This document shows positions 1,893-29,954 of a DNA stretch of 64,000 nt, in pieces (within the stretch, counting starts at the first letter, position 1; each line of letters starts with the position of its first letter). This stretch comes from Escherichia coli. Lineage in GTDB: Bacteria; Pseudomonadota; Gammaproteobacteria; Enterobacterales; Enterobacteriaceae. Both the position numbers and the translations under genes were made by a program. The DNA is taken from assembly GCF_024700885.2 (NCBI RefSeq), contig NZ_CP117016.1, one strand, 5' to 3'. Below the pieces are notes generated by a model. It saw only the letters and a program-made list of their open reading frames with translations. It was not told where the DNA came from and did no database searches.

Positions 1893-3587
1893 TTAATTAC
1901 CAGCGACTTGTTTTGGGTTAAGTTTGGTAATATGGCCACTTTCAGTTCCTGCTGCAGGGTCGATGACCACATTAATAATGGTCGGTTTGCGCGACTGAAT
2001 ACCGGTAGTTAAAGCATGACGAAGTTCATCTGTCGTGGTGACGTTATAACCAACGCCACGAAACGCATCCATTAATTTGTCATACCTTGCATGGTGCAAT
2101 AGATCTGTTGGTGATGGTGCACCAGCGCCACTGAGATCAACACCGTCTCCTCTGTAGATGCCGCCATTATTAAAAATAACGATCGTCACCGGCAGGTTAT
2201 ATCGACAAATCGTTTCAATCTCCATCCCACTGAAACCAAAAGCACTATCACCTTCAATGGCGACAACCGGAGAACCAGAGGTCACGCTAGCACCGATGGC
2301 ATAGCCCATACCGATGCCCATGACACCCCAGGTGCCACAATCCAGACGACGACGTGGTTTATACATATCAATAATATTTCGTGCATTATCCAAGGTATTT
2401 GCCCCTTCATTAACTAAATAAATATCCTGGTTCTCACGCAATACATCGCGCACAGCACTCAATGCATTAAAGTAATTTAATGGTTGGGTATCTGTACTTA
2501 ACTTTTCATGCATTTTTTGCGCATTTTGCTGCTTGTGGATATTTAAAATATCGCGCCACACCAGCGGAGTCGTAAATGTGTTTTGTTTCAATTCTGCCAG
2601 CATACCTTGCATACTGGATGCAATATCGCCAACGACTGGCACAGCAATGGGGCGGTTGCTGTCAATTTCCTGCGGTTCAATATCCAGTTGAATAAACTGT
2701 GTATCTGCCGCCCATCCTTTTTTACCGTGCGCCAGTAACCAATTCAGTCGTGCACCAACAAGCATGACAACGTCAGCATTTGCCAGGGCAAACGAACGCG
2801 CAGCTGCCGCAGAAAGTGGATGCGTATCTTCCAGGATCCCTTTCGCCATAGACATTGGCAGGAATGGAATCTGGGCACTTTCAATAAATTCACGAAGCTG
2901 TTCATCAGCTTGTGAATACGCCGCGCCTTTGCCAAGGATAACTAATGGACGTTCAGCTTTTGCTAAAAGCGAAATTGCGCTAGTGACTGACTTCGGGCAT
3001 GGCAATAATGCTGGCGACGGATTTTCAACTTTAACAATCGTGGTTAACGCTTCGTCTTTTTCCATCGTCGCGGCCAGGACATTTGCTGGTAAATCAAGAT
3101 AAACTCCGCCAGGGCGACCCGATACTGAGACCCGGATAGCGCGTGCCAATGCAATGCCAAGATCCTGCGGCTGATTAACGCGGAATGCTGCTTTGGCATA
3201 CGGTTTTGCCGCATTCATTTGGTCCAGCTCTTCATAATCACCTTGCTGTAGGTCGACGATCGCGCGGTCGCTGGAGCCGCTAATCATGATCATCGGAAAA
3301 CCATTTACCGTTGCGTTGGCCAATGCGGTCAAACCATTGAGGAATCCTGGCGCAGACACTGTCAGGCAGATCCCCGGTTTTTGGGTAAGAAAACCGCTTG
3401 CCGCAGCGGCATAGCCTGCCGACTGCTCATGACGAAAACCAATATAACGAATGCCTTCCGCCTGGGCATGGCGCGCCATATCCGTCACAGGAATACCTAC
3501 AACACCATAAATAGTGTCAATATCATTCTGTTTTAATGCTTCAACGATGATATGCATACCATCTGTCATTTGAAGTTGATCTGACAT
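1893..3587 (-). CDS. oxc: Oxalyl-CoA decarboxylase (thiamine-diphosphate dependent)
   Basis: 564-aa ORF with TPP-enzyme fold motifs (GVVGIPV near the N-terminus, [15 protein letters not shown] near the C-terminus); adjacent to frc. Confidence 0.9.
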
Positions 3588-22987: not shown

Positions 22988-23005
22988 GCCTGATGCGACG
23001 CTAGT
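22988..23005. repeat. Left half of a REP/palindromic unit interrupted by the IS insertion
   Basis: gcctgatgcgacgctagt; together with 24438-24459 it reconstitutes a REP of the same type as the intact copy at 46393-46428. Confidence 0.6.
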
Positions 23006-23047
23006 TGAACTGCACCCCAAATGTTGGACATAATCTGACATCTGAAG

Positions 23048-23578
23048 GTGCAGTTTATGAAACATTCATTTGAAGTAAAACTTGCCGCTGTAAATCATTA
23101 CCTGGCCGGTCATGCAGGCATCATTTCTACGGCAAAACTCTTTCAACTTTCTCACACCAGCCTCTCACACTGGATTAATCTTTTTCTTCTTCACGGTCCT
23201 CGGGCACTGGATTGCAGACACAAGCGTAGCTATTCTCCTGAAGATAAACTTTGCGTGGTTCTTTATGCTCTCGGGCATTCTGAGTCTCTACCCCGGGTAG
23301 CTGCCCGGTTTAACATTCCCAGCCACAACACGGTTAAAAACTGGATAAAAGGCTACCGCAAATCTGGTAATGAGGCCTTTATCAGGCGCAGGAAGGAGAA
23401 AAGCATGACCCGTTCTGATGATACCCATGAAAACGAGGCAAACATGACGCCGGAAGAGATGAAGAATGAGCTGCGTTATCTTCGCGCAGAAAATGCATAT
23501 CTGAAAGCCATGCAGGAGCATCTCCTGGAAAAAAAGCGCCAGGAGCTGGAGAAAAAACGAAAGTCATCCGGAGCCTGA
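23048..23578 (+). CDS. IS3-family transposase OrfA (HTH DNA-binding part)
   Basis: 176-aa ORF with HTH and leucine-zipper-like C-terminus; A6C slippery run at 23552-23558 near its 3' end. Confidence 0.8.
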   Translation: MQFMKHSFEVKLAAVNHYLAGHAGIISTAKLFQLSHTSLSHWINLFLLHGPRALDCRHKRSYSPEDKLCVVLYALGHSESLPRVAARFNIPSHNTVKNWIKGYRKSGNEAFIRRRKEKSMTRSDDTHENEANMTPEEMKNELRYLRAENAYLKAMQEHLLEKKRQELEKKRKSSGA

Positions 23579-23682
23579 GGTGCGGACACTGCCAGCCTGA
23601 CCTGTTAAAGGCTGCAGGGCTGGCCAGAAGCACGCTGTACTACCAGCTGTCACTGCAGAAGGCTAAGGACAAGTATGCTGAT

Positions 23683-24535
<853 letters not shown>

Positions 24536-26114: not shown

Positions 26115-27317
26115 ATGGACCGCGTCCTTCATTTTGTACTGGCACTTGCCGTTGTTGCGATTCTCGCACTGCTGGTAAGCAGCGACCGCAAAAAAATTCG
26201 TATCCGTTATGTTATTCAACTGCTTGTTATCGAAGTGTTACTGGCGTGGTTCTTCCTGAACTCCGACGTTGGTTTAGGCTTCGTGAAAGGCTTCTCCGAA
26301 ATGTTCGAAAAACTGCTCGGATTTGCCAACGAAGGGACTAACTTCGTCTTTGGTAGCATGAATGATCAAGGCCTGGCATTCTTCTTCCTGAAAGTGCTGT
26401 GCCCAATCGTCTTTATCTCTGCATTGATCGGTATTCTCCAGCACATTCGCGTGTTGCCGGTGATTATCCGCGCAATTGGTTTCCTGCTCTCCAAAGTCAA
26501 CGGCATGGGCAAACTGGAATCCTTTAACGCCGTCAGCTCCCTGATTCTTGGTCAGTCTGAAAACTTTATTGCCTATAAAGATATCCTTGGCAAAATCTCC
26601 CGTAACCGTATGTACACCATGGCAGCAACGGCGATGTCCACCGTGTCGATGTCCATCGTTGGTGCATACATGACCATGCTGGAACCGAAATACGTCGTTG
26701 CAGCGCTGGTACTGAACATGTTCAGCACCTTTATCGTGCTGTCGCTGATCAACCCTTACCGTGTTGATGCCAGCGAAGAGAACATTCAGATGTCCAACCT
26801 GCACGAAGGTCAGAGCTTCTTCGAAATGCTGGGTGAATACATTCTGGCAGGTTTCAAAGTTGCCATTATCGTTGCCGCAATGCTGATCGGCTTTATCGCC
26901 CTGATCGCCGCGCTGAACGCACTGTTTGCTACCGTGACTGGCTGGTTTGGCTACAGCATCTCCTTCCAGGGCATCCTGGGCTACATCTTCTATCCGATTG
27001 CATGGGTGATGGGTGTTCCTTCCAGTGAAGCACTGCAAGTGGGCAGTATCATGGCGACCAAACTGGTTTCCAACGAGTTCGTTGCGATGATGGATCTGCA
27101 GAAAATTGCTTCCACGCTCTCTCCGCGTGCTGAAGGCATCATCTCTGTGTTCCTGGTTTCCTTCGCTAACTTCTCTTCAATCGGGATTATCGCAGGTGCA
27201 GTTAAAGGCCTGAATGAAGAGCAAGGTAACGTGGTTTCTCGCTTCGGTCTGAAACTGGTTTACGGCTCTACCCTGGTGAGTGTGCTGTCTGCGTCAATCG
27301 CAGCACTGGTGCTGTAA
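26115..27317 (+). CDS. nupC: Nucleoside:H+ symporter (CNT family)
   Basis: [36 protein letters not shown] at 26115 gives the expected 400 aa (six-frame ORF starts at 26076). Confidence 0.85.
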
Positions 27318-27327
27318 AACCATACAT

Positions 27328-27358
27328 AAAAAAGCCGGGGATCATTCCCCGGCTTTTT
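27328..27358. terminator. Bidirectional rho-independent terminator between convergent nupC and yfeA/pdeA
   Basis: aaaaaa-GCCGGGGA-tcat-TCCCCGGC-tttttt. Confidence 0.65.
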
Positions 27359-27366
27359 TACGCCTG

Positions 27367-29556
27367 TTAATCAGCTAATGGCTGCGGGCGACCAATCAAA
27401 TACCCTTGCAGATATTGCACCCCGAGCTTATGCAATAGCGCCTGCTGCTGTTGCGTCTCGACAAACTCCGCGACCACACTCAATGACTTCGCTTTCGCCA
27501 GATCGGTAATTGATCTCACAATCATCGCATCCAGCGTATTCGTGACGATATCTTTCACAAAGACACCATCAATTTTGATGATATCAGCCTGCAAACGCTT
27601 TAACCGTTCGTAGTTGGCATAGCCGGTGCCAAAGTCATCAATCGCAATCCGGAAGCCAAACTTATGCAGTTGCTCGATGTTGTACATGCTGCTTTCTGCG
27701 TTAGAAAACGCCTGCTCCTCGGTGATCTCAAGAATGACCGCCTGCGGGGAGATGTGATAACGCTTAAACAGACGAATAATCCGCCCGGCAATATTCTTTT
27801 GCAGCAGCGTGAGCGGCATTAAATTGACTGAAAAGCGCGGACCTTTTTTGTCGCAAGGGTGTGTTGCCAGCCACTTCAACAAGGATTCCAGCACTTGCAA
27901 ATCAAAACGCGCGCTAAGGTTAAACTGAGCAATAAGGGGCAGAAACTTATCCGGGGTCATAATGCCGCCGTCATATTTCAGTCGCGCGAGGATTTCATCA
28001 TAACCTTCACCCTCTTTGTTGCGAATTGGCTGGGCGTAGAGCAGCAAATCCCCCTGATCTAACGCCGTGCGAATGGTATTCAGCAATAGCACCTGTTTAG
28101 TGGTCTGCCCGGAAACCATCTCCTCTCTGCTATCCAGCGCCAGCACATGATGATGTGCACAGGATTGCTCCGCCAGCCAGCTTAACTGCCCCAACAAGGG
28201 TTGCAGGGTTTCCTGATTTCCATCAAAACGCCCCCAGGCAGCACCATAGCCCATATCCAGCCCGGTATTGTTCCAGTGAATTTGCCGACTATTCAGGATG
28301 TTAACCATATGCTGGAGTCGCCCTTCCGTTTCCGGCCCGCTCAGCACTAACAGCAGTTCACTACCCGGCAATTGATACAACTTTTCGTTTTCCTGCATCA
28401 ACGGCAGCAGCGTACGGTAAATTGATCGGATACAGTGAACGCGCATCATTAAGCCGTAATGACGACTCATAAACTCAAGATTATCAATGCGCAGGCAGCA
28501 AAAACTCTTGCCCGCCTCTTGCTCCGGCGCTTGTTCTAACGCACGAAAGTTGGGTAGGAGCGTTAACGGATCGGTCAGCGCCTGCAAATGCCAGCGGCGA
28601 TTAAGCCATTCACTGCGATGATAAATGCGCACCATATAGAGCAGGCAAACGCTAAAGGAAATCAGCACCGCGAGAATAAATGCCAGCGAATATTCGGTTT
28701 CCACCCCTTGCAAAAAGTTCTGGTTGTAATTCAGAAGGCAAAGCGTTGAAACAGCCCAGGTGAGATTTAAAAACGGATAGCGGAGCTTACCGACCCCGAG
28801 GGTAAAGATAATGAAGAAAACGGGCACCAGGTAACCGGCAATAAAGTCATTTTCATACGGTGTGCACAGCAGAAGTAGCAGCACGCTTAACGCTGCCAGC
28901 CAGCTTAAGGTAAATGCGCGTTTCTCTTTGCCCAACGACGGAGCGATATCCCTGCGCCACAATATCTGCGCAAAGTGGGGACTTACAATCATGCGAGTGA
29001 GATAGTAGAAAAGCATGTTGTAAATCAGCACAGCGGTGAAAAGGCTTAGTAAATCAACGACTGTGAAAATGGCATCCGCATCGCCGAAAAAGGTGGATAT
29101 CTTTAGCGGGAAATCAAAAAAGCTCCCCACAAGATACATGCTGCATTTGATGCCGATCGGCGTCACCAAACCAAGCCAGAAAAGACGTTGCCAGACATAT
29201 CGGCTGGTCAATCCATAACGCCAACGCGTCCCCAGCTGCCAGCGTAATATTGCGCAGGCACACAACACCACAAACGTCTGGCTGCCGAGCATGACCGCGG
29301 TCTGTAAAAAAGAGAGATGAAAGTTCCACAGATTGGTGCAAAACATCCCGCATAAAACGGGAACGACACCGCGCCAGCCAAAGATAAACAAGATTGACAG
29401 CATTACGCACAGTGGCATCCACGCCAGAAAGATATAACTGGAATGGATAATGGCAAGTGGCGAAATAAAACGGGATAGCTGAATAAGTACCACGGTGAGC
29501 GTAAACGCTAGTGTGAATATCTTGATATTTTTTATCAGGTTATGCTCCACAAACAT
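27367..29556 (-). CDS. pdeA: Membrane-anchored c-di-GMP phosphodiesterase (EAL domain with degenerate GGDEF)
   Basis: Multi-TM N-terminus, C-terminal EAL motifs; internal ATG at 29556 gives the expected 729 aa (six-frame ORF extends to 29616); also known as yfeA. Confidence 0.8.
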   Translation of the reverse strand: MFVEHNLIKNIKIFTLAFTLTVVLIQLSRFISPLAIIHSSYIFLAWMPLCVMLSILFIFGWRGVVPVLCGMFCTNLWNFHLSFLQTAVMLGSQTFVVLCACAILRWQLGTRWRYGLTSRYVWQRLFWLGLVTPIGIKCSMYLVGSFFDFPLKISTFFGDADAIFTVVDLLSLFTAVLIYNMLFYYLTRMIVSPHFAQILWRRDIAPSLGKEKRAFTLSWLAALSVLLLLLCTPYENDFIAGYLVPVFFIIFTLGVGKLRYPFLNLTWAVSTLCLLNYNQNFLQGVETEYSLAFILAVLISFSVCLLYMVRIYHRSEWLNRRWHLQALTDPLTLLPNFRALEQAPEQEAGKSFCCLRIDNLEFMSRHYGLMMRVHCIRSIYRTLLPLMQENEKLYQLPGSELLLVLSGPETEGRLQHMVNILNSRQIHWNNTGLDMGYGAAWGRFDGNQETLQPLLGQLSWLAEQSCAHHHVLALDSREEMVSGQTTKQVLLLNTIRTALDQGDLLLYAQPIRNKEGEGYDEILARLKYDGGIMTPDKFLPLIAQFNLSARFDLQVLESLLKWLATHPCDKKGPRFSVNLMPLTLLQKNIAGRIIRLFKRYHISPQAVILEITEEQAFSNAESSMYNIEQLHKFGFRIAIDDFGTGYANYERLKRLQADIIKIDGVFVKDIVTNTLDAMIVRSITDLAKAKSLSVVAEFVETQQQQALLHKLGVQYLQGYLIGRPQPLAD

Positions 29557-29763: not shown

Positions 29764-29839
<76 letters not shown>

Positions 29840-29878
29840 ACGATGCGTTTACGTACCAAATTTGCTGGGTGCAAAATT

Positions 29879-29954
<76 letters not shown>

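Follow-up and report, generated by a model that had tools for sequence, protein, structure and literature searches.

The 49-bp spacer that separates nupC from the convergent pdeA (yfeA) is very probably an ordinary shared terminator that carries an unoccupied IS186 target, in an Escherichia coli lineage mostly without IS186, the insertion found at this position in K-12 being the derived condition. The spacer was analysed within a stretch of 64,000 nucleotides of one E. coli genome (hereafter the window), to which coordinates refer unless stated otherwise.

The nupC-pdeA spacer and its predicted terminator

The gene nupC, encoding a nucleoside:H+ symporter, is located on the plus strand at 26115..27317 (stop codon TAA at 27315-27317), and pdeA, encoding a putative c-di-GMP phosphodiesterase, on the minus strand at 27367..29556 (stop codon at 27367-27369). 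Both ORFs are annotated in MG1655 (b2393 and b2395, respectively) as well as in strain NA3664, a 100%-identical genome, whose RefSeq annotation gives the same limits for both genes (window 26115-27317 and 27367-29556). The ORF ends and this annotation agree with the gap of 49 bp (27318..27366) given for the two genes in the original prediction. Downstream of pdeA, a tandem pair of tRNA-Ala genes (alaX/alaW) was observed at 29767-29954; K-12 has the same pair and the pig isolate ETEC4068 has three (L005 5936-6241).

The spacer reads aaccatacat-AAAAAA-GCCGGGGA-TCAT-TCCCCGGC-TTTTTT-acgcctg, and folding together with a consensus scan predicts a bidirectional intrinsic-terminator hairpin at 27327..27360. 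Its stem of 15 bp comprises an 8-bp GC core (27334-27341 paired with 27346-27353), closed by the 4-nt loop TCAT (27342-27345) and flanked by an A6 tract (27328-27333) and a T6 tract (27354-27359). The folding energy is -25.0 kcal/mol (z -7.9) for the plus-strand RNA of the spacer, which forms the 15-bp stem, and -30.8 kcal/mol (z -7.5) for the minus-strand RNA, and on neither strand did any of the 200 dinucleotide-preserving shuffles fold as well (0/200). Terminator-like sites were returned by the consensus scan on both strands, the plus-strand match consisting of a trimmed 5-bp stem only. On each strand the stem-loop is followed by T6, the sequence hallmark of an intrinsic bidirectional terminator, and the stem lies 9 nt from the nupC stop and 6 nt from the pdeA stop on the opposite strand, as expected between convergent stops. 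Given the A-tract and the T-tract, RNA made in either direction would carry a U-run behind the hairpin. An Rfam scan of the window returned tRNAs and RtT only, with no match inside the spacer.

Intrinsic bidirectional terminators are a common feature of convergent gene pairs, and the spacer is best described as an ordinary shared intrinsic terminator of nupC and pdeA, with a predicted activity in vivo. The earlier description of a “clean bidirectional terminator” is thus fair for the anatomy (hairpin, A6/T6 and folding on both strands), while termination in the cell has the standing of a prediction. That the hairpin is no terminator, and has been kept merely as a chance palindrome or a protein-binding site, is hardly credible: the trimmed stem of the plus-strand match speaks for it, but against it stand the 15-bp stem with its 8-bp GC core, 4-nt loop and A6/T6 tracts between convergent stops, folding far better than shuffles on both strands, the retention of the spacer in ~82% of genomes (at 96.5-100% identity among the matches listed), and the occurrence of the same hairpin core between A- and T-runs in unrelated bacteria.

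IS186 target motif in the stem

The published target of IS186, described by Lee et al. (2016, PMC5009759) and also given in PMC6925257, is 5'-GGGG(N6/N7)CCCC-3'. Because this motif is palindromic the element inserts in either orientation (PMC5009759; PMC6925257), and the motif is rare: the E. coli genome examined by Lee et al. contains only 54 sites. The spacer is a natural target for IS186 because the stem happens to contain GGGG-N6-CCCC: a motif scan placed this preferred target, unoccupied, at 27337..27350 (GGGGATCATTCCCC). Within it, the junctions of occupied alleles identify the 10 bp that are duplicated on IS186 insertion and that are present as a single copy in the window (GGATCATTCC, 27339..27348). 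The stem site was the only GGGG-N6-CCCC match in the 64-kb window, in which the N7 version (GGGG-N7-CCCC) had no match. As shuffled sequences gave a mean of 0.56 matches, one match in 64 kb is by itself unsurprising, and what gives the match weight is not its rarity but that IS186 has inserted at this very point in K-12.

In MG1655 all three copies (IS186A, B and C; 3/3) lie in a GGGG-N6-CCCC site and are flanked by a GG-N6-CC duplication of 10 bp. GGGG-N6-CCCC is the sequence recognised by the IS4-family transposase of IS186. When the element inserts in the stem, this enzyme makes cuts spaced by 10 bp about the middle of the palindrome, so that GG-N6-CC is duplicated and the hairpin split.

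The same locus in K-12 MG1655

The annotation of MG1655 (NC_000913.3) lists IS186C with insL3 (b2394) between nupC and pdeA, which confirms the IS186 copy that the original prediction places between nupC and yfeA of K-12. According to the junctions, this element of 1339 bp lies inside the hairpin between two directly repeated copies of 10 bp (GGATAATTCC); IS186 itself is bounded by a 23-bp terminal inverted repeat (CATAAGCGCTAACTTAAGGGTTG). When IS186C and one of the duplicates are removed from the MG1655 sequence, aaaaaagccggggataattccccggttttttt is obtained, a hairpin homologous to that of the window. The comparison with K-12, proposed earlier as a check, accordingly finds an IS at the junction that interrupts the same hairpin. 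The restored K-12 hairpin and that of the window differ by two substitutions, in the loop (TAAT in K-12, TCAT in the window) and in the last base of the stem (T and C, respectively). Where K-12 has the 1339-bp element between two copies of the 10-bp GG-N6-CC target, the window has no element and a single copy.

As the IS186C junctions of K-12 retain only a 4-bp residual stem, with a folding z of ~0 relative to shuffles and no terminator-like site at either junction, residual terminators at these junctions were rejected, and the predicted shared terminator is retained in the window and lost in K-12. A further hairpin (GCCGGAAAGGGAGCTCCGGC) followed by a T-run was observed inside IS186C (L001 4043-4062) on the minus strand, the strand of K-12 pdeA read-through. 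This terminator-like hairpin within the element might stand in for the split terminator of K-12.

State of the site across E. coli

The state of the site was counted in 5,426 complete E. coli genomes, the intact state being defined by an end-to-end match to a 199-bp probe across the spacer and the IS186 states by junction probes. The site was intact in about 4,440 of the 5,426 genomes (~82%). According to the junction probes, IS186 was present in the K-12 orientation in 472 genomes (473 by a chimeric query composed of the site flanks and IS186) and in the opposite orientation in 465, giving a total of 937 occupied genomes (~17%); by subtraction, about 46 genomes show other states. The median genome of the whole collection has no IS186 match.

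The intact state prevails among the genomes and, judged by target-duplication logic combined with its frequency, is the pre-insertion (ancestral-type) one, K-12 being derived. The empty site described in the original prediction is therefore real, with a single undisturbed target; the comparison from which it was described needs to be turned round, as the empty site is the usual state in E. coli and K-12 the one that has changed.

Contigs were also scanned with the hairpin (AAAAAGCCGGGGATNATTCCCCGGYTTTTT) in relation to outgroup polarity, which returned two look-alikes in unrelated MAGs and one E. coli contaminant contig, and no outgroup information. The hairpin core AAAAAGCCGGGGATNATTCCCCGGCTTTTT is found in MAGs labelled Alphaproteobacteria and Verrucomicrobiae (L008 983-1012 and L009 676-705) in unrelated contexts, and these look-alikes are apparently convergent terminator-like hairpins. 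The contig NZ_VLXZ01000152.1 (L010; 289 bp, coverage 1.4) belongs to an assembly of Alkalicoccobacillus porphyridii and matches window 27167-27455 at 98.6% identity. Its site is empty and its haplotype is the K-12-like one with TAAT, and the contig is almost certainly E. coli contamination.

One of these other states, an insertion of another kind, was observed in the same spacer of pig ETEC4068, where IS200C (L005 about 2791-3495) is located at a position homologous to window about 27329/27330. This element sits in the A-tract directly 5' of the hairpin, which it leaves intact.

Recurrent insertion of IS186

Five occupied alleles were sampled and read, namely those of MG1655, EC22, GPEC403-625, KK19-02 and strain 53. 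In all five (5/5) an IS186 of 1339 bp occupies the identical position and is flanked by a 10-bp duplication, and these IS186 sequences differ from IS186C at 0-1 of the 1339 bp. MG1655 (plus orientation, loop TAAT) represents the reference flank haplotype and EC22 (minus orientation, loop TAAT) has flanks identical to it, whereas GPEC403-625 (minus orientation, loop TCAT) has the flank haplotype of the window; KK19-02 and strain 53 (both plus orientation, loop TCAT) carry a third and a fourth flank haplotype, respectively. The duplicated sequence follows the same division, with GGATCATTCC flanking IS186 in GPEC403-625, KK19-02 and strain 53, and the sequence given above for MG1655 representing the K-12/EC22 allele.

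The presence of both orientations and of four flank haplotypes among only five alleles implies at least four independent IS186 insertions at the same position. Because of this recurrence at one position, the nupC-pdeA terminator is a natural IS186 hotspot. The near-identity of the IS186 copies, the near-equal numbers of the two orientations and the at least four haplotypes indicate that insertion has been recent and repeated.

One may ask whether this repeated capture has been kept by selection, a split terminator changing how pdeA (c-di-GMP turnover) or nupC is expressed or read through. The data that can be cited for selection are the presence of IS186 in ~17% of genomes, with near-equal numbers of the two orientations and four or more haplotypes represented, together with the IS200C insertion in pig ETEC, and we consider a role of selection unlikely.

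History of the empty site in the window lineage

The terminal inverted repeat of IS186 was not found in the 64-kb window, with up to 3 mismatches allowed. The source genome was covered over these 64 kb, and its IS186 content elsewhere is judged by complete genomes that are nearly identical to it, including three with IS186. The closest relatives were taken as the 24 complete genomes that are 100% identical to the window over 4.5 kb of distant window sequence, and their IS186 copies were counted as places per record with a chimeric query in which this 4.5 kb was joined to IS186. In 21 of the 24 the flank was the only match, i.e. no chromosomal IS186 was present. The remaining three, the chicken isolates VTB96933v, GPEC856 and GPEC403-625 (H240, H241 and H244), have 4-5 chromosomal copies each. 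The nupC-pdeA site is occupied in a single one of the 24 genomes, GPEC403-625, with flanks identical to those of the window, and this insertion is recent. The distribution suggests that IS186 has recently been introduced into a chicken-isolate sub-lineage of an otherwise IS186-free clade, in which a burst followed.

Since the lineage is mostly without IS186 (21 of the 24 closest relatives), the site in the window has most likely never been occupied, as opposed to occupied and restored. The alternative of precise excision holds that IS186 was once present here as in K-12 and was later lost, restoring the single 10-bp target. Precisely excised and never-occupied sites look alike in sequence, and IS186 is active in a sub-branch, as the 4-5 chromosomal copies of GPEC403-625, VTB96933v and GPEC856 illustrate. 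However, 21 of these 24 relatives have no chromosomal IS186 and all but one of the 24 have the site intact, which speaks against an excision, as does the rarity of such events, one being recorded in a mutation-accumulation study summarised in PMC5009759. The window sequence also shows no scar or imperfect duplication, and we regard excision as very improbable.

Allelic replacement, in which an occupied allele was exchanged for an empty one by homologous recombination with DNA of another strain, has an equally slight chance of being correct. E. coli recombines often and the flank haplotypes around the site are mosaic among strains, but some 24 other genomes with an empty site share the window flanks at 100% identity, along 3.1 kb and along 25 kb more, and no breakpoint is apparent near the site. 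A site that has never been occupied thus remains the preferred reading.

IS1397 and the IS complement

The original prediction also proposed, from the site discussed here and from an IS1397 copy elsewhere in the window, that the IS complement differs from that of K-12. This holds at both loci: IS186 is missing from nupC-pdeA, and IS1397, a member of the IS3 family with orfA/orfB and a programmed frameshift, is found between ypeC and mntH at 23005-24437, as delimited by its junctions and by the annotation of relatives. Near-identical genomes annotate window 23057-24405 as “IS3-like element IS1397 family transposase” with a programmed frameshift. The element interrupts the loop of a REP (palindromic unit) sequence and is bordered by a 3-bp duplication, TAG, at 23002-23004 and 24438-24440. 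The specificity of IS1397 for REP sequences is known, and the insertion in the window agrees with it. At ypeC-mntH, K-12 has an uninterrupted REP unit (gcctgatgcgacgcTAGtgcgtcttatcaggc) and no IS1397. In a survey of 2006, which covered the enterobacterial genomes available at that time and K-12 among them, CFT073 was the only one reported to carry IS1397 (PMC1525189). The window represents a non-K-12 lineage with a different IS content.

Implications and comparison with known systems

The finding is correct but ordinary: IS186C of K-12, the IS186 motif, its orientation-independence and terminators of this kind were already known. A full-text search of the literature gave no paper naming IS186 together with nupC, and the small addition made here is a population-scale view of the terminator as a recurrent natural target of IS186 and, occasionally, of IS200C. 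It is K-12, not the window genome, that is derived at nupC-pdeA, and the comparison consequently says something about K-12 rather than about the window genome. Users of K-12 as a reference for the annotation of the nupC and pdeA 3' ends, or of their terminator, should know that the terminator is split there. Data sets obtained in K-12 are likewise uninformative on termination by this hairpin, because it is split in that strain.

Compared with the bidirectional Rho-independent terminators of convergent genes, the spacer presents the same GC stem-loop, the same A- and T-tracts and the same position between two stops, its function being predicted here from the sequence. Compared with published IS186 targets, the site is an exact match to the N6 form of the motif; natural genomes carry the element there in either orientation, and the middle of the 10-bp duplication is that of the palindrome. 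Published IS186 hotspots (the lon promoter, reportedly recognised as such by SaiSree et al. in 2001, menC and fimA) come from laboratory lines, whereas the nupC-pdeA hotspot is a terminator hairpin occupied across natural isolates.
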